Source: Syntrophaceae bacterium | GTDB lineage: Bacteria > Desulfobacterota > BSN033 > UBA1163 | Assembly (NCBI GenBank): GCA_013388645.1 | Contig: JACAEV010000197.1 | Span: 1 to 62,059 of the forward strand | Reading direction: 5' to 3' | DNA: 62,059 bases | Shown: one piece after another, positions 33,583 to 53,110 of the stretch | Layout of the letters: every line of letters starts with the position of its first letter | Position numbering within the stretch: position 1 is the stretch's first letter | Notes under the pieces: generated by a model | Database searches by the model: none | Seen by the model: the letters and a program-made list of their open reading frames with translations, nothing else | What the model was told of the DNA's origin: nothing | Made by a program: the position numbers and the translations under genes

Positions 33583-35481
33583 ATGAGCGCCGAAACAATT
33601 GCAATGGCATCTCCAGGAACCGAGGGATATGTTTTGGGAAATGAAGCGGTCGCCAGAGGCGCAATTGAGTCAGGAGTATGGTTTGTTGCCTGCTATCCTG
33701 GGACACCATCTTCAGAGATATCGGATACCCTATGCAAGCTTTCTGGAGAATTTGGGTATGAATTCGAGTATTCCGCGAATGAAATCGTTGCAACTGAAGC
33801 CGCGGCAGGAGTTGCCTTATTTGGTGGTAAAAGCATGGTGATTTTCAAGGGGGCTGGGTTTTTCGTTGCCTCCGATGCATTGTTCCATCTGGTATTGGGT
33901 AGATTGTGTGGCCCCATGGTGATAGTCGCCTGTGATGATCCCTCGATGCACAGCTCAAGCGATGAAGTGGATCTGCGAATGCTCGCACAAGCCGGGTCAA
34001 TTATTACTTTGGTCCCGTCGAACGTAACCGACGCAAAAGAGATGACCATAGAGGCATTCAAGCTTTCCGAGCTGATGCGTGTGCCCGTATTGATACGTAT
34101 GAGCACACGCTTGTGCCATCAAAGGGGATTTATTAAGCTCGGCGATATACCCAAGAGAAGGGATAATAGGATGGATTGGGATCTCTTAAAAGGTAAATGG
34201 GAGCGCTTTGTTCCCATGGGGGGAGATCCCGTAAGGGGAGAGATGTTAAAGAGCATCGAAGTTATTAGGAGAACGAAAAACATTTTTGAAGACAATAAGT
34301 TAAATAAGCTTGTTAGGGCTAAGTCGGATATCGGTATATTGACCTGTGGCGTCACTTACGGTTACAGCCAAGAAGCAATAAAATTATTGGATATCGAAGC
34401 TTCTATGCTTAATGTGGGGACCATTTACCCACTTCCTGAAAAACTACTAAAAGAATTTATTCAAGAGCTAAAAACTCTCATTGTTGTCGAAGAATTGAGA
34501 CCCTATCTGGAGTCATACATCAGAGCTTTAGCCAAGGATGTAAAACCAGACCTACAGATCTTTGGGAAATGGAATGGCTATTTTCCACAGGCTTTTGAGT
34601 ATGATACGACAATAGTGATGAACTCCATCTCAAAGGCCATGAATATAAATGTGCCGATGGAGTACAAAGAGATAGAGAAGAGAACGGATTTCGTTAAAGA
34701 GTTTACTTTTCCACGAGATCCAGTATTTTGTCCCGGATGTCCGCACAGAGCTACATTTTACGCCGTTAAAAAAGTTACCAAAGATAAAGCGATCATTACG
34801 CAGGATGTTGGGTGTTATTCGATAGGGCTAACTCCTCCTTTCAAAATGGGAGACATTGTACTTTGCATGGGTGGATCCATAGGTGTCGCCTGCGGAATAA
34901 GTTATTTCAATGATAGACCTATCATCGGTTTTATTGGGGATTCAACTTTTTTCCATGCTGGTCTACCAGGCCTTATCAATGCCGTCCATAATCAAGCAGA
35001 TTTCACTCTAATTATTCTGGATAACGGAACAACTGGAATGACCGGATTCCAACCACATCCTGGGAATGATAGTCGAGGGAGAGAAAGGCTTGCCAAGAAG
35101 ATTGACATAGAAAATATTGTTAAGGCTATTGGTGTAGAAGATATAAAAGTGGTTGATAGCTATAATATAAAGGAGTTGATGGATGCGACTAGCGATGCAA
35201 TAGCTTTTAGAGGAGTATCCGTTATTATCTCCAGAAGGGCCTGTTCCATAATAAGTCGAAGAGAAAACCAGAGGAAAGGCCTAAAGGTTGTTGCTTATCA
35301 AATAGATTCGAATAAGTGTGAAGGTTGTTGGCTCTGTATTGAAAAATTCGGGTGTCCTGCTATTGAAAGGGATGGAGAAGTTGTAAAAATTCTTTCTGAA
35401 TCCTGTAATGGATGCAGCGTTTGTGCTCAAATTTGTCCATTCAATGCCATCTTTAAAGAGGATACCAATGGACAAATATGA
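33583..35481 (+). CDS. iorA: Indolepyruvate:ferredoxin oxidoreductase alpha subunit
   Basis: 632 aa. Motifs 'GNEAVARGAIESGVWFVACYPGTPSSEI' and the TPP region 'GDSTFFHAGLPGLINAVHN'. The C-terminal 2x[4Fe-4S] motifs are 'CEGCWLCIEKFGCP' and 'CNGCSVCAQICP'. Confidence 0.88.
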   Translation: MSAETIAMASPGTEGYVLGNEAVARGAIESGVWFVACYPGTPSSEISDTLCKLSGEFGYEFEYSANEIVATEAAAGVALFGGKSMVIFKGAGFFVASDALFHLVLGRLCGPMVIVACDDPSMHSSSDEVDLRMLAQAGSIITLVPSNVTDAKEMTIEAFKLSELMRVPVLIRMSTRLCHQRGFIKLGDIPKRRDNRMDWDLLKGKWERFVPMGGDPVRGEMLKSIEVIRRTKNIFEDNKLNKLVRAKSDIGILTCGVTYGYSQEAIKLLDIEASMLNVGTIYPLPEKLLKEFIQELKTLIVVEELRPYLESYIRALAKDVKPDLQIFGKWNGYFPQAFEYDTTIVMNSISKAMNINVPMEYKEIEKRTDFVKEFTFPRDPVFCPGCPHRATFYAVKKVTKDKAIITQDVGCYSIGLTPPFKMGDIVLCMGGSIGVACGISYFNDRPIIGFIGDSTFFHAGLPGLINAVHNQADFTLIILDNGTTGMTGFQPHPGNDSRGRERLAKKIDIENIVKAIGVEDIKVVDSYNIKELMDATSDAIAFRGVSVIISRRACSIISRRENQRKGLKVVAYQIDSNKCEGCWLCIEKFGCPAIERDGEVVKILSESCNGCSVCAQICPFNAIFKEDTNGQI

Positions 35482-36073
35482 GATATTAGTCGCTGGTGTT
35501 GGGGGACAAGGGGTTATTTTTATTAGCAATGTATTAGGATACGCAGCTCAACGTGCTGGTTATAAAAGAGTTGTGGGTGGAGAAATTCATGGCCTGGCCC
35601 AAAGGGGGGGGAGTGTCGCAAGCTACGTCAGGTTTGGAGAAGGTGTTTACGGACCGATTGTACCGTTGGGCTGTGCCGATATAATCATAGGTCTAGAGTT
35701 TATGGAAGGATTAAGACACATTAATCGATTGTCGAAAAATGGCGCACTTGTACTCTCCAATGTTAGGGTACCCACAATGGGTATGATGGTCAATAATCTT
35801 GCATACCCCAATTCGTTAAATGTTTTATCTAAATTACAGACGTTATTTGATAGAGTATTTTTATTCGAATCTCGGAACACCCCATGTCATTTTGGAAGTT
35901 TGGGTTTGGAAAATATGATCCTCTTGGGTGCAATCGTTAACCATTTTCTTGATTTCCCGATTGGAGAGGAAGATATCCAAGAAAGTATTAAAACGCTTAC
36001 TAAGAAAAATATGGTTGAAAGAAATTTAGAAGCTTTTCAAGCAGGGATGAAACTTCGCCCCTTAATAACATAA
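35468..36073 (+). CDS. iorB: Indolepyruvate:ferredoxin oxidoreductase beta subunit
   Basis: 'MDKYEILVAGVGGQGVIFISNVLGYAA...GEIHGLAQRGGSV'. ATG 35468 overlaps the iorA stop by 14 nt. The track ORF starts further upstream, inside iorA. Confidence 0.85.
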   Translation: MDKYEILVAGVGGQGVIFISNVLGYAAQRAGYKRVVGGEIHGLAQRGGSVASYVRFGEGVYGPIVPLGCADIIIGLEFMEGLRHINRLSKNGALVLSNVRVPTMGMMVNNLAYPNSLNVLSKLQTLFDRVFLFESRNTPCHFGSLGLENMILLGAIVNHFLDFPIGEEDIQESIKTLTKKNMVERNLEAFQAGMKLRPLIT

Positions 36074-36096
36074 ATGGAAATATTTGAATTGTCATA

Positions 36097-37251
36097 ATGC
36101 CAAGAAATAATGTTTTCAGCAAAGTTGAACGGTATTATAGAGACTATGGTGCCAGGGCGAAGGAACTGAAGGCTCAAGGGATAAAGGTAATCGCCTATCT
36201 TTGTTCTCTTACTCCCATAGAAATCATAACAGCAGCGGGATTCCTGCCTTTAAGAATAAGAGGTGACACCAGAGAACCTATAACCATAGGAGATACAAAA
36301 TTAGAGACTATAGCGTGTCCTTTTTTGAGAAGTTGCTTTGATGTTTCACTTAAAGGAAGATATGATTTTTGTGATGGTCTGATTATTCCGCATGCATGCG
36401 ATAGCATTACAAGAACGTATAGCGTCTGGCGTTATTCGATTGGAATAACTTATTCTCATTTTGTAAATCTACCTCATAAAGTCAGCGAGACATCGTTGAA
36501 ATTCTTTAAGGCGGAGCTGACAACATTCAAAAATAGCCTCGAAAGGTTTGCTGACAAGAAGATCTCAGATGAAGCCCTAGCGGAAGCGATAGATTTGAAT
36601 GTAGAAAATCGAAAGAAAGTAAAGGCTTTATATCAATCAAGGAAATCCAACCCACCCCCTATTTCAGGGGCTGAAATAGGAAAAATATTAACCGCTGGTA
36701 TGGGTTTACCTGTGTCTGAATCGAATGAGTTGTTTGATGAGTGTTTAAGGCAGATCAAGCTAAAAAAAGAGATTCCTTTGAAGAAAAGACCTCGGATCAT
36801 GATTTTAGGTAGTTGTTTGGACAATGTTGACCTTATTACTTTTGTTGAGGATGCCGGTGCTGATGTTGTTGTTGATAGCTTATGTATGGGAACGAGAGAT
36901 TACTGGCGCGATATCGGATCTGTGGATGATCCAATGCGTGCAATTGCGCTTCTATATCTGAATAAAATGAATTGTCCCAGGACCTACAGAGAGAAGGTGG
37001 GTAAGAAATTTAGGGAGGATGCAGAGGCAAGATTCGGTGATATCGGTTTGTTAATTAATGAATTCAAGGTCGAGGGTGTCATTCTGTATGTTTATAGAAA
37101 CTGCGACCCATTTGGTTTTGAAGTACCCGCAAGAAAGGAATATCTTTCTTCGCTTCATATCCCAGTTCTATACCTGGAAGGTGAATACTCTTCAGGAGCT
37201 ATTGGGCATTTAAAGACAAGGATCAAGGCATTTCTTGAGTTGATTGGATAG
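36097..37251 (+). CDS. HGD-D family protein (2-hydroxyacyl-CoA dehydratase / benzoyl-CoA reductase BcrC-BadD-HgdB family), smaller subunit
   Basis: 384 aa. Motifs 'YYRDYGARAKELKAQGIKVIAYLCSLTPIEIITAAGFLPLRIRG', 'ETIACPFLRSCFD', 'PHACDSITRTY' and 'RNCDPFGFE'. Confidence 0.8.
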   Translation: MPRNNVFSKVERYYRDYGARAKELKAQGIKVIAYLCSLTPIEIITAAGFLPLRIRGDTREPITIGDTKLETIACPFLRSCFDVSLKGRYDFCDGLIIPHACDSITRTYSVWRYSIGITYSHFVNLPHKVSETSLKFFKAELTTFKNSLERFADKKISDEALAEAIDLNVENRKKVKALYQSRKSNPPPISGAEIGKILTAGMGLPVSESNELFDECLRQIKLKKEIPLKKRPRIMILGSCLDNVDLITFVEDAGADVVVDSLCMGTRDYWRDIGSVDDPMRAIALLYLNKMNCPRTYREKVGKKFREDAEARFGDIGLLINEFKVEGVILYVYRNCDPFGFEVPARKEYLSSLHIPVLYLEGEYSSGAIGHLKTRIKAFLELIG

Positions 37252-37262
37252 GAAAAAGCGGA

Positions 37263-38615
37263 ATGACTGACATACAAAACAATGCTGGAAGAGGAAGAAG
37301 AAGAGGACATGCTACGCGAGCTGCGACTAAGATTCCCTACATGGTGAAAAGCTCCATCATCGATACTTTAAAGGCGAAAGAAAAGGGGAAAATCCTCGCC
37401 TACACATTTGTTTATTGTTGCTACGATGAAATTATAAGGGCCATGGATATAATACCTATTTGGACTGAGAATTACTCTGGAGTATGCGGCGCTAAGAGGG
37501 ATGCCGAAAGATTCCTTAGTAGGGCTGAATCATTGGGATTTTCACGTTCTCTTTGCACTTATGCATTATGTGGAATAGGCTTTGACCAATGGCGGGAAGA
37601 ACTCGGTACTATGCCTCAGGATGCTCCTTGGGGGGGGCAGATGAAGCCCGATCTTATGTTATCAAGTGGGCAGGTCATTTGTGATCCGAGGTATAAATGG
37701 TATCAGGCAGTACAACAATATATGCCAGATGTCCCCATTTATACTGTTGATTTACCATGGCCTGTTTATGAGGATGATTTGGATTTACCTTCTGTTGAAT
37801 CCTATTATATTGAATATCTTAAGGAAGAATTGCATGGGCTGGTTAAGTTTTTGGAGAAGCATACTGGAAGAAAGATGAATTGGGACAAGCTGAGTGAGTT
37901 AGTTGATTTGACCGAAAGGACATGGAATTTAATCTGGGAGACATATGAACTCAGACGGACTGTTCCTACACCTATGGATACAGGAGATGCGATGAACACG
38001 ATGGTGCCCATCCTTTATATGATGGGTACCCAGGAAGGATATGACTTCTTTTTAGAATTAAATAAAGAGCTAAAGGAGAAAATTAAGAGGAAAGAAGGGG
38101 TTATTTCGAATGAAAAATTTAGACTACTATGGGGTGGTGGATTACCCCCATGGTTCGCCTTAGGTGACTTTAATTATTTTAACAGTAAGGGAGCTGTTTT
38201 TCCGGTTGAGGTAACCTATCGCGTCATTGAACCTATCAATGACCTGAACATACCTAATACGAATGGTCCTGTTGAACGTATAGCCTGGAGGTGGCTTAGG
38301 TATTGGACGTATTGGTACAAGAAGGCAAAAAGTAGGCCAGGCTCTGAGCCAGACGTAGAACGTTTAATACAATACATTGAAGACTACCGAATCGATGGTG
38401 TTGTCGTGCACTTAGCCTCTTCGTGTCGAACAGCACATCTGAGTCTTATTTGGCAATTAAGTCAATTAAAAAAGATATACAAACAAATCCCTTGCTTATT
38501 TCTAGAGAGTGATATGATCGATATAAAGCAATATTCAAAATTACATACAAGAAATATGATAGATGCGTTCATTGAAATCTTGGAATCCAACAAAGAAAAA
38601 AGGGGAAATTGCTAA
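37263..38615 (+). CDS. HGD-D family protein (HgdA/BcrB-like), larger subunit
   Basis: 450 aa. Motifs 'ILAYTFVYCCYDEIIRAMDIIPIWTENYSGVCGAKRDAERFLSRAESLGFSRSLCTYALCGIG' and 'DGVVVHLASSCRTAHLS'. Confidence 0.78.
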   Translation: MTDIQNNAGRGRRRGHATRAATKIPYMVKSSIIDTLKAKEKGKILAYTFVYCCYDEIIRAMDIIPIWTENYSGVCGAKRDAERFLSRAESLGFSRSLCTYALCGIGFDQWREELGTMPQDAPWGGQMKPDLMLSSGQVICDPRYKWYQAVQQYMPDVPIYTVDLPWPVYEDDLDLPSVESYYIEYLKEELHGLVKFLEKHTGRKMNWDKLSELVDLTERTWNLIWETYELRRTVPTPMDTGDAMNTMVPILYMMGTQEGYDFFLELNKELKEKIKRKEGVISNEKFRLLWGGGLPPWFALGDFNYFNSKGAVFPVEVTYRVIEPINDLNIPNTNGPVERIAWRWLRYWTYWYKKAKSRPGSEPDVERLIQYIEDYRIDGVVVHLASSCRTAHLSLIWQLSQLKKIYKQIPCLFLESDMIDIKQYSKLHTRNMIDAFIEILESNKEKRGNC

Positions 38616-38634
38616 GTTTCAGTAGGAGAGTTAA

Positions 38635-39300
38635 ATGGATGCTCGAATAGCCGTTAGAGAAAGGAGAAGTATCCGCTGTTTCAGGCCAGATGAAGTTCCC
38701 GAAAATATTATTCGGGAAATCTTGGATGTGGCAAGATGGGCTCCTTCTTGGGGGAATACCCAACCTTGGGAGTTTTATGTAGTGACAGGGAATGCTCTAG
38801 AAAAATTTAAAAAACTGAATCGTCAACAGTATATGGACGGAATACCCCCATCACCAGAAATCCCTATGCCAAGGGTTTGGCCCGAGGTGTTAAAAAAGAG
38901 GTATACGAGCTTAGGGAAAAGGCTTTTAACCTCCATGTCGATTGCAAGAGAAGATACAGAAGGTCGCAGTAGATATTATGCAAAAATGTATGGTCTTTTT
39001 GGTGCTCCCTGCCTAATTCTCACATGCATCGAGAAAAGCCTCTCCATTGAATATGCTATGATAGATGTTGGGCTTATTAATCAGACAATCTGTTTATTGG
39101 GCCATGAAAGGAATCTCGGCACTTGTATGCTTGCAGCTTCTGTATCGTATCCAAAGCTTTTAAGAGAATTGTTACCTATTCCAAAAGATAAACTTATCGT
39201 CATTGGAACCGTTCTCGGTTATCCTGATTGGGATTCCCCAGAAAATCATTTTGAGCGGGAAAGGGCAACGATTGACGAACAGGTCACCTGGGTGAGTTAG
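38635..39300 (+). CDS. Nitroreductase-fold flavoprotein
   Basis: 221 aa with 'RRSIRCFRPDEVPENIIREILDVARWAPSWGNTQPWEFYVV'. Confidence 0.85.
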   Translation: MDARIAVRERRSIRCFRPDEVPENIIREILDVARWAPSWGNTQPWEFYVVTGNALEKFKKLNRQQYMDGIPPSPEIPMPRVWPEVLKKRYTSLGKRLLTSMSIAREDTEGRSRYYAKMYGLFGAPCLILTCIEKSLSIEYAMIDVGLINQTICLLGHERNLGTCMLAASVSYPKLLRELLPIPKDKLIVIGTVLGYPDWDSPENHFERERATIDEQVTWVS

Positions 39301-39423
39301 ATAAATGGATTTGCAACGATTTTCGAAAAAGGGGTCGCCACATGTTTTTTCAGGAGTGATCTGCGTGGTTTGATAATCTGATAAGAATAGTAAGTTTGTT
39401 TAGGAAACGGTTAAAGTGTTTCT

Positions 39424-40410
39424 ATGAGAAAAGAAAAGGTATTTATTACTGATCCCTTATTGAGTAGTATTCCAAAAATGGCACAAAAGAGGTTTCCGAA
39501 AGAGAACGACCAAATCGAATGGATGATTGCGAATAGTGGCGAAAAAGAAGAACTGTTGAAGGTAATACCCTGCGTAAATATTATTGTTGTTGGGAGGCAA
39601 CAAATAACGCGAGAACTCATCCAAAGGGCTGATAAGGCTTATTTTATCCAGCAATGTGGAATGGGATACGACAATATAGACATTGCAGCGGCACGCTCGA
39701 GAAACATCGTTGTTGCAACTGCTGGTCCGGCAGGAGTTATTTCGGTGGCTGAACATACCATTTTACTGATGCTGGCAGTGGCAAAGAGCCTTCCACTTGC
39801 TCATAATTCAACGATAAAGGGAGATTGGCTCTTTCCAAATCTTTTAGGGCATGTTTACGAAGTTTACGAGAAAACATTAGGTATTATCGGATTGGGGCAG
39901 ATTGGAACCCGGGTTGCAGTTCTCGCTCACGCCTTAGGAATGAAGATTCAATATTATGACCCATACCGCAAGAGTGTTAGTGACCTTGAGTTTCCTATTA
40001 AGTTCGGTTCTTTGGATGAACTTCTGGTTACTTCTGATTTCGTTTCCATACATACTATTTTAAACGAAGAAACTCGCCATATGATCAGTAAAGACAAATT
40101 GCGTATGATGAAATCGACTGCATACCTTATTAACACATCTCGAGGAGAAATTGTTGATGAAGATGCTCTTGCTGATTTTTTAGAAGAAGGGAGAATTGCA
40201 GGCGCAGGCTTGGATGTTTTCGGCGCGCACACGGAAGGTCCAAAAAGAGGGTCAAAGATTCTAAGCTTACCCAATGTAGTGCTTACCCCACATCTTGCTG
40301 GATCTACAGCAGAAGCCTTTTTTAGAAATTATTACGTTCATTCATTAGAAAATATTATGCGGACTGTAAGGAAAGAAGCACCGTTATATATCGTGAGACA
40401 AGGAGAGTAG
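39424..40410 (+). CDS. D-isomer-specific 2-hydroxyacid dehydrogenase (NAD-binding)
   Basis: 328 aa. Motifs 'LGIIGLGQIGTRVA', 'LINTSRGEIVDEDAL', 'GAGLDVF' and 'VVLTPHLAGST'. Confidence 0.85.
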   Translation: MRKEKVFITDPLLSSIPKMAQKRFPKENDQIEWMIANSGEKEELLKVIPCVNIIVVGRQQITRELIQRADKAYFIQQCGMGYDNIDIAAARSRNIVVATAGPAGVISVAEHTILLMLAVAKSLPLAHNSTIKGDWLFPNLLGHVYEVYEKTLGIIGLGQIGTRVAVLAHALGMKIQYYDPYRKSVSDLEFPIKFGSLDELLVTSDFVSIHTILNEETRHMISKDKLRMMKSTAYLINTSRGEIVDEDALADFLEEGRIAGAGLDVFGAHTEGPKRGSKILSLPNVVLTPHLAGSTAEAFFRNYYVHSLENIMRTVRKEAPLYIVRQGE

Positions 40411-40424
40411 GAGGAGACAGAAGT

Positions 40425-42089: not shown

Positions 42090-42134
42090 ATAAGTTATCA
42101 ACATTTATAATGAAATTTCTGTACGGAGGGAATA

Positions 42135-43655
42135 ATGAAGAATGAGAAGTTTGATGCGATTGTGATTGGTGCGGGGGTGGGGGGACCCACAGCAGGAGCC
42201 ATCCTTGCGAAAAAAGAAGGGATGAAAGTCCTTGTACTTGAAAAGGCCTCTCGAGTTGGGGGAAGAGATATTTCCTTTAATTTCAGCGAGGAAGACCCAG
42301 AGACCTATAAACGATTGATTGCTAATGCGGCTCATACTTGGTATGTCAAGTCGGAACCGGATCTAACGGAACTTTTTAAGCAGGGGTATCTAAAGGGATA
42401 TAGTTTTGAAGCAGGAATTCATACTCTTCAAATCACCGAAAGAGGACGGACAAATGTTTGTCTCACCTACTTGGGGAAACCATTGACTCTCTTCCCTGCT
42501 GTGAGTGCAGGGTGGTGGCATGGCGGTGAATTATACCATTTCGAAAATGGCTCTGAGAGGGGGGGGAATTTCCCCTGGATGAATGAGAGAGACAAGGAGG
42601 AGTGTGGAAAGATCAACCGGTTGATGGTAAAAATTTCAGCTGATGAGGCTCATTCCTATGATCATATAAGTTTGAAGGAATGGATGGAGGTGAGAACTGA
42701 TAATCAAAATACCAAAGACTTCCACTACGTGAATGGTACGATGAACTGTACTATCAATGATCCCGCAAACATTTCTGCAGGGGATTGTATTCTTATGAAT
42801 CGGGCTGTGGCAAGAGCAGGTAAACGATTTTCATATGGTGGGTGTTCAACACCAGGCCTTCCAGGTTTCGTACAAATCCCGTTGAAATTATGTGAGGTAA
42901 TTGAGGAGCATGGCGGGAAAGTTGTAACTCGGGCAACGGTGAAGGAGGTATTAATTGAGAATAGAAAGGTGAAAGGAGTCCTTGTGGAGATTGAAGGAGC
43001 AGAAGAAAAGATCGAATGTCCAATTGTCATCAATTCTGGGATGGTTAATGAGATGTTCAATTACATTCCTGAAAACCACTTTCCTTATACTTTCGTCAAA
43101 CGGGTGAAAGGCTTTTGGCGGGCTGGAATAGGTGCGGTCTATTTTGGACTCGGCCACAAGATTGTAAAAGAACATTTGACTTTTGTTCCTAAAATTGCAG
43201 GCAAAGAAGACGGTTTCGACAGCGATGTCCGCATGGGGTTCTGGGATAGCTCAGGCATGGATCCAGGCCGCGCCCCGGAAGGCAAGCAGTTATTGGATGC
43301 GTATGTATCCCTTGTAGATATAGAGGCTCATAACCTGGAACTCGTAAATTTGGCATATGAGAAAATGAAAAAATTCATGGAAGATAATTATCAGGGCTTT
43401 AAACAGGCACTCGAATGGACTCTGTATACTGTTTCTGACAGTCTCGTACCAGTCGCCCAGGCACCTTATCAAGTTGGGGATGCAAGACCCAAAGCAAAAA
43501 GTCCTTTTATTGAAGGGCTCTATATGGCATCAGACAGTTCGGAGTGTTCTATGGCTGCAAATGATGCAGCCGTCCATGCCGGAATCATTGCAGCAAGCCG
43601 TATTAGTGGAAAGGATTATGTAAGCGAAATTCTACCTGAATATCTCAGAGATTAA
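42135..43655 (+). CDS. FAD-dependent oxidoreductase, phytoene-desaturase (CrtI)-like family
   Basis: 506 aa. The dinucleotide fold is 'KFDAIVIGAGVGGPTAGAILAKKEGMKVLVLEKASRVGGR'. A GGAGGG RBS is present. Confidence 0.75.
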   Translation: MKNEKFDAIVIGAGVGGPTAGAILAKKEGMKVLVLEKASRVGGRDISFNFSEEDPETYKRLIANAAHTWYVKSEPDLTELFKQGYLKGYSFEAGIHTLQITERGRTNVCLTYLGKPLTLFPAVSAGWWHGGELYHFENGSERGGNFPWMNERDKEECGKINRLMVKISADEAHSYDHISLKEWMEVRTDNQNTKDFHYVNGTMNCTINDPANISAGDCILMNRAVARAGKRFSYGGCSTPGLPGFVQIPLKLCEVIEEHGGKVVTRATVKEVLIENRKVKGVLVEIEGAEEKIECPIVINSGMVNEMFNYIPENHFPYTFVKRVKGFWRAGIGAVYFGLGHKIVKEHLTFVPKIAGKEDGFDSDVRMGFWDSSGMDPGRAPEGKQLLDAYVSLVDIEAHNLELVNLAYEKMKKFMEDNYQGFKQALEWTLYTVSDSLVPVAQAPYQVGDARPKAKSPFIEGLYMASDSSECSMAANDAAVHAGIIAASRISGKDYVSEILPEYLRD

Positions 43656-43681
43656 AAAGCAGGAAGGAAAAGGATTGGATA

Positions 43682-44077
43682 ATGGCACTTAAAAGAAAGG
43701 TTAGAATTCTAATTGCCAAAATTGGGCTTGATGGTCATGATAGGGGAGCAAAAGTCCTGGCCTCAATGTTGAGGGATAATGGTTACGAAGTCATTTATCT
43801 GGGTCTTTATAATACCCCCGAAATGGTTGTTCAAAGTGCCATCCAGGAAGCGGTTGATATCATTGGCATTAGCTTTCATTCGGGGGAACATTTAACATTG
43901 ACTCCGATATTAATGAATAAACTCCGCGAACATCAGCTGGGCGAAATTCCCGTTATTATAGGAGGTATCATCCCAATGGAGGATGAGAACATATTGATAG
44001 GAATGGGTGTCAAACGGGTTTTTCGGGGTTCACTGGTTAGTGAAGTCATAGAATATTTGAATCATTATTTCAAATGA
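43682..44077 (+). CDS. Cobalamin-binding small subunit of the acyl-CoA mutase
   Basis: 131 aa. 'RILIAKIGLDGHDRGAKVLASMLRDNGYEVIYLG' carries the DxHxxG motif, with 'IGISFHSG' and 'VIIGGIIP'. Confidence 0.85.
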   Translation: MALKRKVRILIAKIGLDGHDRGAKVLASMLRDNGYEVIYLGLYNTPEMVVQSAIQEAVDIIGISFHSGEHLTLTPILMNKLREHQLGEIPVIIGGIIPMEDENILIGMGVKRVFRGSLVSEVIEYLNHYFK

Positions 44078-44117
44078 AGAGGAATTTCCATTTGAATTTG
44101 ACGGAGAGGGAATAATC

Positions 44118-45284
44118 GTGGATTTTTCTTATACAAACGAACAAGAGATCTTAAAAGATATATTGCGAGAGTTCTGTGATAAGGAGATAACACCAAAAGT
44201 AGCGGAATACGACAGAAAACGAGAATTTGATTATAGCATCATTGAAAAGCTGCATAAACAAAAACTTTTAGGTGTCGTCATCCCTAAGGAATATGGAGGG
44301 GTAGGTGGCAGTTTAATTGATCAAGCAATTATTTGTGAAGAGATTGCCCGTAATTCATTTACAGCGATGGTAGTAACGAATTTTACTTGGTATATGCCCT
44401 ACGAGATACTAAGAGTGGGGACAGAGGAGAATAAGAAAAGGTGGATTTCCTATCTATTTGATGGGAAAAAATTGGGTGCGCATTCTGGTACAGAGGCCGA
44501 TGCCGGAACAGATGCAGCATCGGTTCGAACCTGGGCTAAACTGGAGGGGGATGAATGGGTCATTAATGGAACAAAATGGTTTGTCTCCAATCTTGGCAAA
44601 GCAGATTATTACTTCATTAGTTTACGTACTGCTGAAGACCGTTACAATGGAATGAGCACAATCTTAGTAGAAAAAAATACGCCTGGTATGACCATTGGAA
44701 GAAGGGTTGAACACATTAGCGTACGAGGAATAAATAATGGTGAGTTAATATTTGAGAATTGTCGGGTCCCTAAGGAGAACCTCATCGGTAGATTGAATAA
44801 GGGATTTTATGACATGTTGGTCCTATATGATGTAATAAGATTATTTTTCGCCATAGGGGCAGTTGGGATAGCAAGGGGTGCCTTGGAAAGCTCAATAAAA
44901 TTTGCTCAAGAACGGCAACAGTTTGGTAAGCCCATTGGGGATTTTCAGCTAATCAGAGCAATGATTGCTGACATGGCGACAGAGATCGATGCTGCAAGAT
45001 TGTTAATTTATAGAGCATTGGATATGGAGAGAAAAGGACTCAAACATACAAAAGAGACTTGCATGGCAAAACTCTATGCCACCGAAATGGCCGATAGAAC
45101 TACATACAAAGCTATACAAATACATGGAGGATATGGAGTTACTACGGATTTCCCTGTAGAACGTTATTGGAGAGATGCCCGTATCACCACTATAGGTGAA
45201 GGGACAAGCGAGATCCAAAGGTTGATTATCGCTTCTGAAATATTCAAGAGCGAAAAAATCGTGCTTGACTCAGCACTCGATTAA
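44118..45284 (+). CDS. Acyl-CoA dehydrogenase (adjacent to etfBA, Bcd-like arrangement)
   Basis: 388 aa. Motifs 'GTEADAGTDAAS', 'INGTKWFVSN' and 'YWRDARITTIGEGTSEIQRLIIA'. It has a GTG start. Confidence 0.88.
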   Translation: MDFSYTNEQEILKDILREFCDKEITPKVAEYDRKREFDYSIIEKLHKQKLLGVVIPKEYGGVGGSLIDQAIICEEIARNSFTAMVVTNFTWYMPYEILRVGTEENKKRWISYLFDGKKLGAHSGTEADAGTDAASVRTWAKLEGDEWVINGTKWFVSNLGKADYYFISLRTAEDRYNGMSTILVEKNTPGMTIGRRVEHISVRGINNGELIFENCRVPKENLIGRLNKGFYDMLVLYDVIRLFFAIGAVGIARGALESSIKFAQERQQFGKPIGDFQLIRAMIADMATEIDAARLLIYRALDMERKGLKHTKETCMAKLYATEMADRTTYKAIQIHGGYGVTTDFPVERYWRDARITTIGEGTSEIQRLIIASEIFKSEKIVLDSALD

Positions 45285-45294
45285 TTTGGGTATT

Positions 45295-46062
45295 ATGTTG
45301 AATATAGCAGTCTGTATCAAGGAAATACCCGAGGAAATTCGGGTAAATAAGAAAACATACACCTTGATTAGAGAAGGTATAAAGGGGGTTATTAATCCGT
45401 GCGATAAAAATGCGATAGAGCTATCCGTCACCTTAAAGGAGAAACATGGGGGGAAGGTAACGCTGATTTCCATGGGCCCTCAAAATGTGGAAAAGACTTT
45501 AATACATGGCTTGGCCATGGGGGCGGATCAAGCAGTATTTATTTGTGATAAGGCATTTGCTGGCGCTGATACACTTGCAACAGCATTTACCTTAGTAACA
45601 GCTATAAAAAAACTGGGTCATTTCCAATTAATACTTTGCGGTAAAGCAAGTGCAGACAGTGGCACGCAGCATATTGGACCCCAGATTGCCAATTTTTTAG
45701 GGATTACTCAAGTTACATACGCAGTCGGTCTTGCTGTTGAAAACAACAAGGTACGGGTGAAAAGGCAGTTGATGGATGAATACGAAACTGTGGAAGTGGA
45801 ATTTCCAGTTTTGATAAGCGTTGTTAAAGGAATGAATGAGCCAAGGATTCCATCGTACGTTGACATATATGAAGCATCCAAGAAGGACTTTTTCAGATGG
45901 TCCATTAATGATCTCGGTTTAAAGGAGGACCAGGTAGGTCTAACGGGATCCCCAACGAAAATTAGTAAAATCTTACCACCAGAGACGATTCGGCAGTGCA
46001 AGATGCTACAAGGTACATTAGAGGAAATATGTAATGATTTAGCCCAAATATTGAAGACTTGA
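45295..46062 (+). CDS. etfB: Electron transfer flavoprotein beta subunit
   Basis: 'MLNIAVCIKEIPEE...', 'ISMGPQNVEKTLIHGLAMGADQAVFI' and 'LILCGKASADSGT'. The start is set at ATG 45295, downstream of the ACAD stop. Confidence 0.88.
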   Translation: MLNIAVCIKEIPEEIRVNKKTYTLIREGIKGVINPCDKNAIELSVTLKEKHGGKVTLISMGPQNVEKTLIHGLAMGADQAVFICDKAFAGADTLATAFTLVTAIKKLGHFQLILCGKASADSGTQHIGPQIANFLGITQVTYAVGLAVENNKVRVKRQLMDEYETVEVEFPVLISVVKGMNEPRIPSYVDIYEASKKDFFRWSINDLGLKEDQVGLTGSPTKISKILPPETIRQCKMLQGTLEEICNDLAQILKT

Positions 46063-46073
46063 AGGGTTAAATA

Positions 46074-47051
46074 ATGGAGAACAACAATCAGTATCGAGGT
46101 GTCTGGGTATTTGTAGAGCATAAAGGCAGCCAAATAGAAAAGTGTAGTCTTGAGCTTTTATCTTTAGGGCGCAATCTTGCTAGCGAACTTCAGGTGGATC
46201 TTTCAACCCTTGTGATAGGGAATCTCATGGGACGATTATCTGAGGAATTGATGTACTATGGGGTGGATGTCGTATATGTCGTGGAAAACCCTGTTCTTGA
46301 AAGGTATACTACTTCTCCCTACCATAAAATTACTTGTGACTTAATCAAAGAATATAGGCCGGAGATAGTTCTATTTAGCTCTACACCTATAGGTATGGAT
46401 TTAGCCCCCAGAGTTGCTTGTGAACTAAAGACTGGCCTGGTTGCTCACTGTGTAGATTTGAAAATAGATAAGGGCAAGAGACAGTTACTTCAAATTTGTC
46501 CTTACGGTGATTATATGGCAACTATGATCACCACAGTGAAACCACAAATGGTTACAGTTCAGCCTGGGGTAACCCCTCTACCTCCAAGGGGAGAATTCAA
46601 ACAGGGACAAACAGTGCAGATTGAACGGGAAATAGATATTGGGAATATAAAAATCATAGAAGTGGTGAAGCCAGAAAAAGCTGATATGGGAAAGATCGAG
46701 GAATCGGATGTTATTATTGCAATCGGGCGGGGGGTGAAGAACATGAGCTTGGCTGAGAAACTGGCAGAATGCCTTGGAGGAATATTGGGTGCTACACAGC
46801 CAATTGTTGATGCTGGACTATTACCGGAATCACGTATGATCGGCCAGACAGGGAAAGCAGTCCGACCTAAGGTATATATTGCTTGCGGAATTTCTGGGGC
46901 AGGGCAACACATCGTAGGAATGAAAAATTCTGGGTTAATTGTAGCTATTAATACTGACGAAAAGGCTCCCATATTTAAAGTTGCTGATTACGGTATCATT
47001 GGAGATGTTTCTAAAGTGATCCCTGCATTAATTGCCGCTTTAAACCGCTGA
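46074..47051 (+). CDS. etfA: Electron transfer flavoprotein alpha subunit
   Basis: 325 aa. Motifs 'VWVFVEHKGSQIEKCSLELL' and 'VYIACGISGAGQHIVGMKNSGLIVAINTDEKAPIF'. Confidence 0.9.
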   Translation: MENNNQYRGVWVFVEHKGSQIEKCSLELLSLGRNLASELQVDLSTLVIGNLMGRLSEELMYYGVDVVYVVENPVLERYTTSPYHKITCDLIKEYRPEIVLFSSTPIGMDLAPRVACELKTGLVAHCVDLKIDKGKRQLLQICPYGDYMATMITTVKPQMVTVQPGVTPLPPRGEFKQGQTVQIEREIDIGNIKIIEVVKPEKADMGKIEESDVIIAIGRGVKNMSLAEKLAECLGGILGATQPIVDAGLLPESRMIGQTGKAVRPKVYIACGISGAGQHIVGMKNSGLIVAINTDEKAPIFKVADYGIIGDVSKVIPALIAALNR

Positions 47052-47146
47052 TGTTATTTAAAATCTTGATTAATATTTCTTTCGCTCAATGCGTTGCAGT
47101 AATATCCATAAGATGAGAATTGGTCAAGGGAAGGAGGAAATTTATA

Positions 47147-48679
47147 ATGAGAAATTTCGGTTCCCTTATAAGAGAGAAGGCGTTGAAACATCAAAATAAG
47201 ACTCTCTTTATTTTTAGGGACGGCGAGATAAGCTTTAAAGATTTCCACGAAAAGACCAGCCGTATGGCCGCCAGTTTGGTGGGATATGGCTTGAACATTA
47301 GTGATCGGGTAATAGTCCATTTTGGTAACGGGTTAGAAATTGTCGAATCATATTTTGCTGTAGGGAAGGCTGGAGCTATTTCTATTCCCCTAAACACAAT
47401 GTTCACTGCCCGAGAGATGAAATACATCATCAATAATGCGGAGGCTAAATTTATTATCACTTCGGAAGATTCTCTTGCCAAGATTCTGTCGATAAGAGAT
47501 GAAATACCAACCGTCCAAAAGATATTTGTGGCAGGAAAAGGAAGGCAATCTGACGTCATTCCATACCGTCAGCTTTATGAAGGAACTACACAAGAGGTAC
47601 ATGGATTAGATGTGGATCCAGAAAGTATTTCGATGGTGTTTTATACTTCCGGTACCACTGGAAATCCAAAAGGGGCAATGCTCACGCACAACGGCTTAAT
47701 CACAAATGCCGAGGTGATGGTAAAGACGCTGGGTTTTACCGAAAACGACAGGTCACTCTGCATTTTACCTTTTTTCCACCTCTTTGCGACCATGTTTAGT
47801 TTACTGCAAATGATGTTTGCGGGAGGAAGTACGGTCATTGTTGAAGGGAAGTTTGATGAAGAGATAGCTTGCCGATTTATTGAAAAGTACAAGGTAACGG
47901 TATTGTTGGGAGTGCCAACTATATTTATTTATCTGATCAATTACCCAGGGAGAAAAAAGTATGATTTATCATCTCTTAGAATTGGGGTGACTGGAAGTGG
48001 GCCAGTTCCCATTACATTAAAGGAGCAATTTGAAAAAGAAGTTGGTATCGTTGTCGTTGAAGGTTATGGCTTAACAGAGGGTGGACCAATTGTCTGTATC
48101 GAGAGGCCTGGGGGAGAAAGGCGGCTTGGTTCTTGCGGGTTGACTTTGCCAGGGTTAGAGACCCGTGTTGTGGATCAAAATGGTAAGGATGTTCCACCAG
48201 GAGAAATTGGAGAACTTATCATCAAAGGATATCCTTATATCATGAAAGGTTATTGGAAAATGCCAAAGGAGACTTCTGAGACTCTGCGCAATGGGTGGCT
48301 TTTTACAGGCGATTTAGTGAAAAAAGACAAGGATGGATATATCTATATCGTTGATAGGATAAAGGATATGATAGTTCGTGGTGGGTATAATATCTATCCT
48401 AAGGAGGTCGAAATGGTTCTTTACTCTCATCCCTCGGTTTTAGAAACTGCTGTGGTGGGAATATTTGATGAAGTACTGGGCGAGGTACCGAAGGCATACA
48501 TTGTTCTCAAGCCAGGGGAGAATATATCTGTGGAAGAATTAAATAAGTATTGCAGAGAAAATTTAGCAGCATACAAGGTACCGCGGGAGATCGTTTTAGT
48601 AAATGAGTTACCTAAAACAGGATCTGGGAAAATAAGTAAGGTTGAAATACGGGAAAGAGAGAAAATGAAAGGGAACTAA
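47147..48679 (+). CDS. AMP-forming acyl-CoA synthetase
   Basis: Motifs 'FYTSGTTGNPKGAMLTH', 'GYGLTEG', 'GDLVKKDKDGYIYIVDRIKDMI' and 'PKTGSGKI'. The start is ATG 47147 after GGAAGGAGG. Confidence 0.88.
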   Translation: MRNFGSLIREKALKHQNKTLFIFRDGEISFKDFHEKTSRMAASLVGYGLNISDRVIVHFGNGLEIVESYFAVGKAGAISIPLNTMFTAREMKYIINNAEAKFIITSEDSLAKILSIRDEIPTVQKIFVAGKGRQSDVIPYRQLYEGTTQEVHGLDVDPESISMVFYTSGTTGNPKGAMLTHNGLITNAEVMVKTLGFTENDRSLCILPFFHLFATMFSLLQMMFAGGSTVIVEGKFDEEIACRFIEKYKVTVLLGVPTIFIYLINYPGRKKYDLSSLRIGVTGSGPVPITLKEQFEKEVGIVVVEGYGLTEGGPIVCIERPGGERRLGSCGLTLPGLETRVVDQNGKDVPPGEIGELIIKGYPYIMKGYWKMPKETSETLRNGWLFTGDLVKKDKDGYIYIVDRIKDMIVRGGYNIYPKEVEMVLYSHPSVLETAVVGIFDEVLGEVPKAYIVLKPGENISVEELNKYCRENLAAYKVPREIVLVNELPKTGSGKISKVEIREREKMKGN

Positions 48680-48814
48680 AAAGGAAGGCTCAATAAATGG
48701 AAAGGGAGAAATTGTATGTTGGAATTTGTCAAGTGAATTTGGAGTTGCCTGTACCATTGAAGAGGTTTCAAAGCCCAGTTTCTTTAGTAAAGTCAAAAAC
48801 AGGAAGAGATAAGA

Positions 48815-49885
48815 ATGCAAGATCTTTATGAGAAATTACGCAAGAAACTTGATAGACATCCGATGGGTACCCCTGCGCACCCAACTATTTTAAATATCCT
48901 TAAGGAACTATTCACACCTGATGAGGTTCGTCTGGCGTTAAGTATGAGCTTTAAGAGTTTAGAGATAGAAGAGATTGCAAAAAGGGCTGGCGTTCCAACA
49001 CTTGAAGCTTCTTCTTTGTTAGAGAGCATGGCTGACAAGGGGCTAATATACTGCACGAAAAACAAGGGGCGAATCCGATACACTCTTATTCCACCCATGC
49101 CAGGTTTCTTTGAATTTAGTCTTGTCAAGGGAGAGGAGACGGCCCAGACTCGACGACTCGGTGCGCTTTGGGAAGATTATTTTAAAAGTGCCTTGGGCCA
49201 TTCTATGCACAATACAAGAATCCCTATGAGCAGGGTGATATCTGTGAACAAGAAAATATCTTATGGGGTGGCTATACTTCCCTATGAAGAGTCACTTGAA
49301 ATTGTTAAAAAAGCCAATAAGGTGGCTTTAGGCCAATGTCAATGCCGATTTTCAGCTCGAAACTGTGATGCTCCGCTTGATGTTTGCATCTTATTAGAAG
49401 GTTGGGCAGAATTCTTGGTCGATAGGAAGTTGGCGCAATCCATTTCGGTTGAGGAGGCGATTGATGCCTTACAGAGAGCTGAAGCAGCGGGTCTTGTTCA
49501 TATGACAACCAATACGAAAACGCCGGTTCCCTATATTTGTAATTGCTGTTCTTGTTGCTGTTATATGCTTCGTGGAGTTGTTGAGCTTGGGTACAGAGAC
49601 CTGGCTTCCTCCAGATTCATCGCCTTTGTAGATGAAGAAACTTGCACGGGATGTAATGCATGTGTTGAGATTTGCAAGTTTAAAGGTGTAGAAGTTAATG
49701 AAGAGGGGGTAGCTAAGGTGATAAAAGATTATTGTATGGGTTGCGGTCTTTGCAGCTCGGCATGCCCGGAGGATGCAATCTCGATGGTTCAACGGAGTGA
49801 TTACCACGAACCGTATAATTCGGGTAGAGACCTATTGCTAGATATTGCCAAAGATAAAAATAAGCTGAACTTTGAATTATCTTAG
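48815..49885 (+). CDS. Cys-rich Fe-S protein with a C-terminal 2x[4Fe-4S] ferredoxin domain (putative electron-transfer partner)
   Basis: 356 aa. Motifs 'CQCRFSARNCDAPLDVC', 'YICNCCSCCCYMLRG', 'CTGCNACVEICKF' and 'CMGCGLCSSACPEDAI'. There is no TM segment. Confidence 0.7.
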   Translation: MQDLYEKLRKKLDRHPMGTPAHPTILNILKELFTPDEVRLALSMSFKSLEIEEIAKRAGVPTLEASSLLESMADKGLIYCTKNKGRIRYTLIPPMPGFFEFSLVKGEETAQTRRLGALWEDYFKSALGHSMHNTRIPMSRVISVNKKISYGVAILPYEESLEIVKKANKVALGQCQCRFSARNCDAPLDVCILLEGWAEFLVDRKLAQSISVEEAIDALQRAEAAGLVHMTTNTKTPVPYICNCCSCCCYMLRGVVELGYRDLASSRFIAFVDEETCTGCNACVEICKFKGVEVNEEGVAKVIKDYCMGCGLCSSACPEDAISMVQRSDYHEPYNSGRDLLLDIAKDKNKLNFELS

Positions 49886-49915: not shown

Positions 49916-50698
49916 ATGAATTACAAATACATACTATTTTCAAGAATGGACCGTGTGGGCAGAATAGAGGTTAATCGTCCTGAAAGTTTGAATTCTGTGA
50001 CGATCGATGTCATGAGAGAGCTTGATTATGCCATCAAAGAGATTGAAGATGATGAGCATCTTAGAGGGGTCATCATAACGGGGGCTGGGGACAAAGCGTT
50101 CATTTCAGGCGGTGATATAAAGTATATGGAAAAGATTACAGCGAGAGAGCTGCTCAATGAACAAACAGAGGGGCAAGAGATTATACAGAGGATGGAGGAG
50201 CTTAGAAAACCAATGATTGCTCGAATCAATGGAATTGCTCTGGGTGCCGGCACTGAGATCGCCCTTGCCTGCGATATTAGGATTGCCTCTGAAAAGGCGC
50301 GCTTTGGGTTGCCAGAGATAACGCTTGGGATCATCCCTGGTTATGGCGGGACCCAACGATTACCTCGTTTGATTGGTAGCGGTAAAGCTAAGGAGTTAAT
50401 GATGACAGGCGACATTATCTCTGCCGAGGAGGCTTATAGGATAGGCTTGGTTAACAGGGTGGTCCCCCATAATCAATTGGACGCAGAAGTGGATAGTGTG
50501 GCCAAGAAGTTGTGTGAACGGCCACCCCTTGGTCTGCAAATGGTTAAGGAAGCTATAAATTACGGCATGCAGATGGATCTTCATAGTGCAATCCGCATGG
50601 AAGCACGCCTCTTTAACATCCTTTTTAACTCTGAGGACAAAAAAGAAGGTATGGCAGCTTTTTGGGAGAAGCGGAAGCCCGCTTTTAAAGGGCGATAA
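49916..50698 (+). CDS. Enoyl-CoA hydratase (crotonase)
   Basis: 260 aa. Motifs 'GRIEVNRPESLNS', 'GAGDKAFISGGD', 'INGIALGAGTEIALACDIR', 'GLPEITLGIIPGYGGTQR' and 'EKRKPAFKG'. Confidence 0.9.
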   Translation: MNYKYILFSRMDRVGRIEVNRPESLNSVTIDVMRELDYAIKEIEDDEHLRGVIITGAGDKAFISGGDIKYMEKITARELLNEQTEGQEIIQRMEELRKPMIARINGIALGAGTEIALACDIRIASEKARFGLPEITLGIIPGYGGTQRLPRLIGSGKAKELMMTGDIISAEEAYRIGLVNRVVPHNQLDAEVDSVAKKLCERPPLGLQMVKEAINYGMQMDLHSAIRMEARLFNILFNSEDKKEGMAAFWEKRKPAFKGR

Positions 50699-53091: not shown

Positions 53092-53110
53092 TAAGTGAAG
53101 AGGATTTTAT

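Follow-up and report, generated by a model that had tools for sequence, protein, structure and literature searches.

The gene string treated here occupies positions 33583-49885 of a 62,059-nucleotide stretch of Syntrophaceae bacterium DNA (contig JACAEV010000197.1; this whole 62-kb stretch is called the window below), and the described systems closest to it belong to several enzyme families. In the clostridial dehydratase clusters hadAIBC-acdB-etfBA, fldAIBC and hgdCAB, as in the string, the genes for two HGD-D subunits are adjacent and occur with a D-2-hydroxyacid dehydrogenase (2-HADH), an acyl-coenzyme A (acyl-CoA) dehydrogenase (ACAD) with EtfBA and a 2-oxoacid oxidoreductase, the last belonging to the oxidative branch. 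The window differs from these pathways in having no activator ATPase gene, no adjacent family III CoA-transferase gene and a mutase within the string, in a beta-like subunit with six cluster cysteines and sequences nearer to BzdNO, and in its host, which, judged by its relatives, is not an amino acid fermenter. With class I benzoyl-CoA reductase (BCR; BzdNOPQ/BcrABCD; 8S02; PMC11971306) the HGD-D pair shares the double-cubane ligands of BzdN together with R53 and R267, the equivalents of the BzdO cysteines, Glu65 and Tyr97 and, in its distant orthologs, two ATPase genes. Unlike the loci of that enzyme, the window is without ATPase genes, and no more than one accompanies the nearest orthologs; in addition, the scores are far below the cutoffs, Trp46, His131 and Glu381/Gly382 of BzdO are replaced, and no benzoyl-CoA pathway genes were identified. 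The electron donor system of Thauera aromatica, 2-ketoglutarate:ferredoxin oxidoreductase (KGOR) with ferredoxin, offers a parallel to the 2-oxoacid:ferredoxin oxidoreductase gene that lies near the pair. The double-cubane cluster protein (DCCP; 6ENO) resembles one subunit, HGDD1, in being its best NCBIfam model and in its six-cysteine motif; it is a homodimer, whereas the window has two diverged subunits, of which the second has a single-cluster motif.

The mutase of the string is split into large and small subunits with a DxHxxG B12 site, as are HcmAB, IcmAB and methylmalonyl-CoA mutase (MCM), and HcmA is its closest structure, but the specificity residues of these enzymes are replaced, a DPIHCRY stretch is present, a MeaB-type gene is missing and a CrtI-fold gene stands between the subunit genes. 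The usual partners of this mutase match BadI, BadH and cyclohexanecarbonyl-CoA dehydrogenase of the Rhodopseudomonas palustris badHI-aliBA-badK system as top or near-top hits, none of which reaches its equivalog cutoff; a mutase is not part of the Bad/Ali pathway. The CrtI-fold flavoprotein has the fold (TM score ~0.7) and the flavin adenine dinucleotide (FAD) dinucleotide-binding motif of the phytoene desaturase/CrtI family, of which we take the limonene dehydrogenase CtmAB to be a member, but it is <=20% identical to any solved structure, stands in an acyl-CoA context and is paired with the mutase and a Cys-rich Fe-S protein. A literature search on mutases with phytoene dehydrogenase or dehydratase, on alkylsuccinate routes, and on BCR or 2-hydroxyacyl-CoA dehydratase (HAD) enzymes in Syntrophus or Dehalococcoidia found no description of either the HGD-D clade or the mutase clade.

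The gene string and its two modules

Our preferred explanation, which we hold with evenly divided confidence, is that the string is not an fld/had-type pathway fused to a mutase but a place where two modules, each conserved in its own right, meet in a restricted lineage, inside an island of genes for the CoA-thioester catabolism of imported organic acids. The initial annotation, made from the sequence alone, had described a composite of thirteen genes in which a mutase was fused into a unit of the clostridial fld/had type. The open reading frame (ORF) list and the Pfam and NCBIfam scans recovered every gene that it named, at the same coordinates and in the same order on the + strand, although the string holds 14 genes, and the genes are indeed co-directional with short gaps (all <=135 nt). 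The limits given for the unit were not borne out, since co-directional acyl-CoA genes extend from 8693 to ~59074; nor was the fusion, since the mutase has a conserved operon of its own and the ior/HGD-D block looks like an addition. The 14 genes are as follows.

33583-35481, + strand: iorA (TIGR03336), with a C-terminal 2x[4Fe-4S] domain
35408-36073, + strand: iorB (IOR_beta)
36097-37251, + strand: HGDD1, HGD-D protein, BzdN/DCCP-like (PF06050, 266 bits)
37263-38615, + strand: HGDD2, HGD-D protein, BzdO/HadB-like catalytic subunit (PF06050, 181 bits)
38635-39300, + strand: nitroreductase-fold flavoprotein (PF00881; nearest PDB entry the uncharacterised 3gr3)
39424-40410, + strand: NAD-dependent D-isomer-specific 2-HADH (PF02826, PF00389)
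40425-42089, + strand: mutL, large subunit of an adenosylcobalamin (AdoCbl) acyl-CoA mutase (PF01642, TIGR00641)
42135-43655, + strand: CrtI/amine-oxidase-fold FAD protein (PF01593, PF13450)
43682-44077, + strand: mutS, B12-binding small mutase subunit (PF02310, TIGR00640, DGHDRG)
44118-45284, + strand: ACAD2 (Pfam)
45265-46062, + strand: etfB (Pfam)
46074-47051, + strand: etfA (Pfam)
47120-48679, + strand: lig3, AMP-forming acyl-CoA ligase (PF00501, PF13193; NF004837 at 497 bits, cutoff 476)
48815-49885, + strand: Cys-rich Fe-S protein of 356 aa with 19 Cys, two Fer4 motifs and a weak winged helix-turn-helix domain (Pfam, sequence)

To judge how far this arrangement is conserved, it was compared with homologous loci, numbered L001-L116. 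Two of these, L001 and L002 (89% identity for HGDD1), match the window to the contig end. A second comparison is with L088/L094, from a clearly different organism, in which lig2, iorAB, HGDD1-HGDD2, 2-HADH, mutL, the CrtI-like gene and mutS stand in the order of the window, with identities of 77% for lig2 (the ligase gene just upstream of iorA), 76% for iorA, 60% for HGDD1, 77% for HGDD2, 69% for 2-HADH, 81% for mutL, 81% for the CrtI-like protein and 71% for mutS; this locus differs in having no nitroreductase gene and in having a transporter in place of ACAD-Etf after mutS. It represents the only other lineage with the order ior, HGD-D, 2-HADH, mutase. In L116 an HGD-D pair with one ATPase gene lies 5.5 kb upstream of the mutase set; we considered whether this pair is orthologous to that of the window, but with identities of 32% and 20% it belongs to a different subfamily. 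A rough estimate, allowing a few HGD-D pairs in each genome, puts two or three independent cases of co-localisation among ~17 lineages above chance, which is suggestive only.

The initial annotation had expected conserved synteny, and had taken independent occurrence of each sub-block elsewhere as a sign of chance juxtaposition. The first expectation holds for the order in L088/L094 and, by a non-orthologous analog, in L116, but elsewhere each sub-block is found independently: the HGD-D pair has no mutase gene within 10 kb in any of 80 genomes, neither ior nor HGD-D genes lie near the mutase in ~10 mutase lineages, and a relative with 92% mutase identity (L086) is without the block. In L086 the crotonase gene ECH3 of the flanking island is followed directly by the nitroreductase gene, and DNA alignment shows the 16-kb block from lig1 to HGDD2 as a clean indel. 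The nitroreductase gene is present in L001 and L086 and not in L088, the order ACAD2-EtfB-EtfA is kept in L086 and L087 and does not adjoin the mutase in other lineages, and ECH4 and ACAD3 follow in L086 as well. At L086:7405-9709 the 2-HADH is truncated to 257 aa and separated from the mutase by an rve-family transposase, a sign of active rearrangement of the island mediated by insertion sequences (IS).

These data bear directly on the alternative in which function does not connect the ior/HGD-D block with the mutase operon: the two would serve unrelated substrates and would be neighbours only because insertion and IS-mediated rearrangement gather catabolic genes in one island. The independence of the sub-blocks in most genomes and the clean indel against a 92% relative that also carries the truncating transposase are what it would predict, as is the content of the island, which runs for >50 kb in one direction around the 14 genes and has two LIV-type ABC transporters, five ligase-like genes, five ACADs, two EtfBA pairs, five crotonases and one thiolase; such duplication suggests several pathways side by side. 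We nevertheless consider this alternative unlikely, since chance neighbours would not be expected to keep one order in a lineage at 60-81% protein identity, to have a non-orthologous counterpart beside the mutase in L116, or to be separated across the module borders by gaps of 11-45 nt, and a terminator scan found no + strand terminator-like sites in the intergenic gaps of the string. Promoter counts were at or below shuffle expectation, and that scan neither proves nor disproves a single operon. An Rfam scan of the whole window gave no cobalamin riboswitch and no other family at threshold. The host, an uncultured anaerobe, has its best matches among metagenome-assembled genomes of Desulfobacteraceae and 'Deltaproteobacteria'.

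The HGD-D pair: cofactor sites and neighbourhoods

The label of dehydratase core, given to the HGD-D pair by the initial annotation, is narrower than the data allow: Pfam returns HGD-D only, a family that counts benzoyl-CoA reductase and double-cubane proteins among its members, and the cofactor signature of the pair is of the reductase type. HGDD1 was ranked by NCBIfam as double_cubane (208 bits), BzdN (181), BcrC (157) and HadC (139), and HGDD2 as HadB (119 bits), BzdO (106) and BcrB (74), so that the curated cutoffs for BzdN, BzdO, BcrB and BcrC (421-487 bits) were not reached by the scores of 181, 106, 74 and 157, respectively. Among solved structures both subunits are nearer to BzdNO than to HadBC (HGDD1: BzdN 8s02_B at 172 bits, its best match, versus HadC at 120; HGDD2: BzdO at 88 bits versus HadB at 74).

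In the structure of the reductase, the [8Fe-9S] cluster of BzdN is held by Cys36/73/100/263/293/327, the catalytic [4Fe-4S] cluster of BzdO is held by Cys95/128/380, with Glu65 as proton donor and Tyr97 in contact with the thioester, and the double cubane has been lost in dehydratases (PMC11971306). All six of the BzdN double-cubane cysteines align with cysteines of HGDD1 (C36/74/101/263/293/336), and these six, with R53 and R267, are invariant in 90/90 orthologs; HadC has Ala at the C263 position. A beta subunit of the dehydratase type would have a single [4Fe-4S] or [4Fe-5S] cluster and would have lost the ligands of the distal sub-cluster, and HGDD1, with all six ligands present, is not of this kind. 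The invariant C98/C140/C388, E69 and Y100 of HGDD2 stand at the positions of BzdO C95/C128/C380, Glu65 and Tyr97, respectively; HGDD2 differs from BzdO in having Cys for Trp46 and Arg for His131, and Glu381/Gly382 are also not kept. From these alignments HGDD1 is predicted to carry an [8Fe-9S] double-cubane site and HGDD2 a single [4Fe-4S] cluster. On account of the conserved cluster residues, we place the pair in a clade of its own within the BCR-I/HAD superfamily, one whose cofactor complement is of the reductase type.

A different chemistry was implied by the initial annotation, namely a single pathway from 2-oxoacid through (R)-2-hydroxyacid, 2-hydroxyacyl-CoA and enoyl-CoA to acyl-CoA, in which the HGD-D pair acts as a genuine dehydratase and the same skeleton is rearranged by the mutase. 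Beyond the presence of D-2-HADH, ACAD-EtfBA and IorAB in the string itself, and HadB being the best NCBIfam model for HGDD2, this pathway draws its support from the neighbourhoods of the clade, which were surveyed in 80 species genomes (Desulfobacteraceae, Desulfatiglandales, Syntrophus including S. buswellii, and Dehalococcoidia). The HGDD1 and HGDD2 genes were adjacent in 80/80 genomes, and in 0/80 was the mutase, the CrtI-like gene, the nitroreductase gene or ACAD-Etf found within 10 kb of them, so the mutase that this pathway includes is missing at every genomic HGD-D locus. The most frequent neighbours were ligase or CoA-transferase genes. Orthologs of lig2 (60-66%) adjoin the pair in seven loci (L027-L030, L054, L063 and L068), with a 51% match in an eighth; a family III CoA-transferase gene lies immediately upstream in seven Dehalococcoidia loci; and LIV transporters with ligases are found nearby in Syntrophaceae. 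2-Hydroxyacid dehydrogenases of two unrelated families recur near the pair, of the NAD type in four lineages and of the GlcD-CCG FAD type in ~ten loci, and ior-like genes (37-38%) lie near it in two (L028 and L072). This flavour of 2-hydroxyacid metabolism is the best argument for a dehydratase. In the window the 2-HADH gene begins at 39424, and it is ligases that adjoin the HGD-D block, the family III CoA-transferase genes being ~16 kb and ~35 kb off. IorA (645.1 bits; TIGR03336 cutoff 650.9) and IorB (156 bits; IOR_beta cutoff 206) fall short of the equivalog cutoffs and belong to the family of indolepyruvate-type 2-oxoacid:ferredoxin oxidoreductases.

Two further gene sets were observed beside HGD-D orthologs. 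In Desulfobacteraceae (L027:12851-19215; also L029, L030, L054, L063 and L068) the set consists of a CxxCxxCC protein, a thiolase, the lig2 ortholog and a GlcD-type protein, which in L027 is an FAD oxidase of 864 aa fused to Fer4 and CCG domains. The L053 locus has two ATPases and a 2-HADH of the NAD type and lies between two glycyl-radical-enzyme genes (15-1694 and 15957-18281).

Activator ATPase genes, searched for by tblastn with an HgdC sequence, gave a graded picture. No such gene was detected by this query in the 62-kb window or in L086-L091, and matches were obtained in 75 other loci, with one or two adjoining the HGD-D pair in most of the 80 genome loci; three matches, in L027 and L010, were confirmed as PF01869 (BcrAD_BadFG). 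Two ATPase subunits are the architecture of a reductase, and one is that of a dehydratase or of DCCP. Where there was enough flanking DNA for counting (36 + 14 loci), orthologs <=60% identical to the pair of the window had two ATPase genes in 34 loci, one in 1 and none in 1, the two-ATPase loci having the gene orders aNOa or NOaa, and orthologs >=61% identical had two in 1 locus, one in 10 and none in 3. The number of ATPase genes drops with rising similarity to the window, from two (<=60%) through one (61-67%) to none in the window and L088, a trend suggesting that the activator went in steps from a heterodimer to a homodimer and then became unlinked. The radical enzyme of the window must use an unlinked ATPase, if any.

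Taken together, we regard the single dehydratase pathway as doubtful. The single ATPase gene of the nearest orthologs (61-70%), as in dehydratase activators, speaks for it, as does the fact that obligate anaerobes generally avoid reductases with a stoichiometric ATP cost, and the recurrent 2-hydroxyacid dehydrogenases and the CoA-transferases of the Dehalococcoidia loci point the same way. Set against these are the six-cysteine set retained by HGDD1 and lost by HAD beta-subunits, the closer relationship to BzdNO, the reductase architecture of 34/36 more distant orthologs, and a window with neither an activator nor an adjacent CoA-transferase gene. The composite pathway of the initial annotation is partly supported: the recurring juxtaposition and the neighbouring 2-HADHs agree with it, and the missing activator gene, the cluster site of the beta-like subunit and the closer sequence relationship to BzdNO do not. 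As the evidence from cofactors and that from neighbourhoods diverge, we leave the chemistry of the pair between two-electron reduction and dehydration.

The mutase and its partner genes

The second module has at its core an atypical mutase. MutL has a full MM_CoA_mutase domain (PF01642 at 585 bits; TIGR00641 at 566, cutoff 304) and MutS has the DGHDRG (DxHxxG) B12 motif (TIGR00640 at 135 bits, cutoff 57), but MutL scores only 452 bits against NF006944 (cutoff 876), and among solved structures it is nearest to HcmA (4r3u, 431 bits), compared with 353 bits to human MCM. We take Tyr89, Arg207 and His244 to be the specificity residues of MCM (P. shermanii numbering) and Ile90 and Asp117 those of 2-hydroxyisobutyryl-CoA mutase (HCM), their positions having been checked against PDB alignments; a literature search found no paper stating mutase specificity residues. 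In the alignments with 1REQ and 5REQ, Val74, Gly193 and Asp230 of MutL stand at Tyr89, Arg207 and His244, respectively, the first mapping being verified by the Phe found there in the 5REQ Y89F chain, and in the alignment with 4R3U Val74 and Ile101 stand at Ile90 and Asp117. The Phe/Gln pair that presumably marks isobutyryl-CoA mutase (ICM) is also missing from the clade, and the usually conserved DILKE(F/Y) stretch reads DPIHCRY. Since the signature residues of both are replaced, the clade is neither MCM nor HCM. E73, V/L74, I101, R190, G193, Y229-D230 and R232 are invariant across 118 homologs (57-92% identity), and the small residues in the pocket (Tyr to Val/Leu, Arg to Gly) suggest, on sequence grounds, a bulky substrate.

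The CrtI-like protein accompanies this mutase in ~16 lineages, with its gene between mutL and mutS in all but L115, where it lies 3 kb downstream, and it is as conserved as the mutase (77-92% among five orthologs). The family is small, with ~30 clusters at 68-91% and two at 54% before a drop to 34%, and its orthologs (68-92%) are confined to the vicinity of this mutase clade. The nearest folds to its AlphaFold (AF2) model (pLDDT 95) are 3ka7, 3nrn, phytoene desaturase 5mog and 4rep, all at TM ~0.7 and including uncharacterised archaeal oxidoreductases besides phytoene desaturases. The fold search gave matches at superfamily level only, pointing to no function, and a PDB sequence search matched the FAD-binding N-terminus only. 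In Dactylosporangium a 32% homolog (L112) lies directly downstream of a double TetR gene (L112:6793-7920), with acyl-CoA genes nearby and no mutase, and this context suggests that the flavoprotein acts on CoA esters.

The other usual partners of the mutase are scattered through the island, whose flanking features are as follows.

7021-8193, - strand: tandem (double) TetR regulator, divergent from the island, with two TetR_N and two TetR_C_4 domains (Pfam)
8693-14545, + strand: BadI/MenB-like crotonase ECH1, BadH-like short-chain dehydrogenase/reductase (SDR), ACAD1, thiolase, 3-hydroxyacyl-CoA dehydrogenase and ECH2 (NCBIfam)
14754-22553, + strand: LIV-type ABC transporter 1 with a fused 615-aa AMP-binding protein, then ECH3 (Pfam)
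22637-33561, + strand: lig1, LIV-type ABC transporter 2, a secreted 166-aa protein and lig2 (31957-33561) (Pfam)
49916-59074, + strand: ECH4, three further ACADs, family III CoA-transferase and a second EtfBA pair (Pfam, NCBIfam)

For the 13 mutase lineages with >=5 kb of upstream sequence, orthologs of ECH1/SDR/ACAD1 lie upstream of the mutase in 10/13 and ior/HGD-D in 2/13 (the window lineage and L088), and L086 has the nitroreductase, the truncated 2-HADH and the IS element there. The ECH1/SDR/ACAD1 orthologs (65-84%) are directly upstream in at least 10 lineages, and operons of this type usually stand behind a divergent tandem TetR gene (52-64%; L090, L092, L096, L099, L100, L103 and L115) and are usually followed by LIV transporter 1 (directly after mutS in L088, L090, L092, L095 and L100) and by the Cys-rich Fe-S protein (53-87% near the mutase in L086, L088, L092 and L108; a 49% match adjoins it in L104). 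The window has every one of these partners, but away from their usual places, in 7021-22553 and 48815-49885. The Cys-rich Fe-S protein has no NCBIfam match and has CNCCSCCC (residues 242-249) and CQC-x6-C-x6-C (175-191) ahead of its two ferredoxin motifs. By NCBIfam ECH1 matches MenB (357 bits) and BadI (299), the SDR has BadH as its best match (251) and ACAD1 has cyclohexane-1-carbonyl-CoA dehydrogenase as its second best (364 bits), all below cutoffs; these similarities hint at ring-opening beta-oxidation of an alicyclic acyl-CoA.

In two loci the mutase set has other neighbours. In L093 it adjoins a carboxyltransferase and a glycyl-radical enzyme whose small subunit is of the BssC/TutF type, and in L115 a biotin carrier, a carboxyltransferase and OAD_beta, with an ortholog of ECH4 (70%) also there. 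We considered the L093 enzyme as a candidate for fumarate addition and did not accept it, as NCBIfam gave generic PFL2-3 and dehydratase models only and the BssC_TutF small subunit was the sole support. The weakest alternative, that the mutase/CrtI set rearranges alkyl- or cycloalkyl-succinyl-CoA or naphthenic acids derived from hydrocarbons, with this organism scavenging such acids, finds some support in these two loci, in the Bad-like partners, in the small pocket positions and in the two family III CoA-transferases of the window, but we judge it quite improbable because the glycyl-radical enzyme occurs in 1/~17 lineages and was not typed as fumarate-adding, because the window has neither such an enzyme nor a carboxyltransferase, and because the carboxylate-binding Arg207 of MCM is missing, so that a succinyl-type substrate would need another anchor, for which the invariant R190 and R232 are no more than candidates.

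Several observations concern cobalamin functions and the edges of the island. A MeaB-type chaperone gene was not found in the window; the gene at 60233, which was considered as a MeaB-like mutase chaperone, is HypB by NCBIfam (TIGR00073, 255 bits) and that at 60953 is HypA, and these hydrogenase nickel-insertion/maturation genes (60233-61324) follow the island, where hypB is easily taken for a chaperone of the MeaB/CobW type. A cobO/cobA-type ATP:corrinoid adenosyltransferase at 59500-60103 is split by a stop and a frameshift and looks like a pseudogene: its N-terminal P-loop part (VYTGNGKGK...) is in another frame with an in-frame stop, and the ORF 59708-60103 covers profile positions 68-171. 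In L099:11701-18600, on a metagenome contig, two more mutase large/small pairs (47-56% to the window) lie directly downstream of mutL-CrtI-mutS, with no CrtI-like gene of their own. The 166-aa protein (30352-30852) in the operon of ABC transporter 2 has an N-terminus that resembles a signal peptide and is matched by neither Pfam nor NCBIfam; it is kept at 89% in L001 and 50% in L088. A DUF2889 gene within 55793-57290 is broken by a TAA stop at 56042-56044 and followed by ~1 kb (56.3-57.3 kb) with no ORF of more than ~100 aa, in which Rfam was also empty; this could be decay at the island edge or a sequencing error.

A candidate pathway and its significance

In the arrangement that we prefer, a junction of two modules, module 1 (22.6-38.6 kb) is the single indel block, in which a two-subunit radical Fe-S enzyme is encoded together with IorAB, two CoA ligases and an ABC transporter. 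Module 2 is the atypical AdoCbl mutase and the CrtI-fold flavoprotein that accompanies it, the genes that usually share their operon being scattered through the island; the nitroreductase and 2-HADH lie between the modules, and ACAD-EtfBA and the third ligase after the mutase. We propose that a branched, alicyclic or aryl-substituted carboxylic acid would be imported and thioesterified, after which the radical enzyme, reduced by an ATPase encoded in trans, would perform a ketyl-radical step, either a two-electron reduction or the dehydration of a 2-hydroxyacyl-CoA, with IorAB and 2-HADH supplying substrate or low-potential electrons. The mutase may then shift the thioester carbon beyond a branch point at which beta-oxidation would be blocked, an accompanying redox step may fall to the flavoprotein and the Fe-S protein, and ACAD with its electron transfer flavoproteins, the crotonases, the SDR and the thiolase would complete the breakdown, possibly with ring opening of the BadI type. 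That the radical enzyme and the mutase act in series is plausible, in roughly equal balance with mere co-location.

Several points weigh against this reading. An ATPase is required by every known member of the radical-enzyme family and was not found encoded in the 62 kb, so the enzyme may depend on an unlinked gene outside the window. The NCBIfam equivalog scores of the key enzymes are all below cutoffs, and the BadI- and BadH-like assignments are weak, beta-oxidation of a 2-methyl-branched acid being compatible with them as well. The adjacency of ior/HGD-D and mutase is found in two related lineages only, plus one analogous case, and could arise from the clustering of catabolic genes in islands rather than from a shared pathway. 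With these points in mind, we put forward as a long shot the stronger proposal that the mutase, the CrtI-fold flavoprotein and the Cys-rich Fe-S partner form a new functional type of B12 acyl-CoA mutase system, possibly rearranging bulky alkyl- or cycloalkyl-acyl-CoA in anaerobic hydrocarbon or naphthenic-acid degradation, and acting here in series with a new double-cubane member of the BCR/dehydratase group that is fed electrons or substrate by IorAB.

For annotation, the results caution that an HGD-D match is not equivalent to a dehydratase, nor an MM_CoA_mutase match to methylmalonyl-CoA mutase. More broadly, they draw attention to two uncharacterised enzyme clades with testable sequence signatures that are widespread in uncultured sulfate-reducing, syntrophic and Dehalococcoidia lineages, one a heterodimeric HGD-D enzyme that joins cofactors of the reductase type with a neighbourhood of the dehydratase type, and the other a B12 mutase without the known specificity determinants that is tied to a flavoprotein. 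Either clade could fill a gap in the routes by which anaerobes degrade branched, alicyclic or hydrocarbon-derived acids, in which, to our knowledge, the step that rearranges the carbon skeleton has not been assigned by biochemical work.

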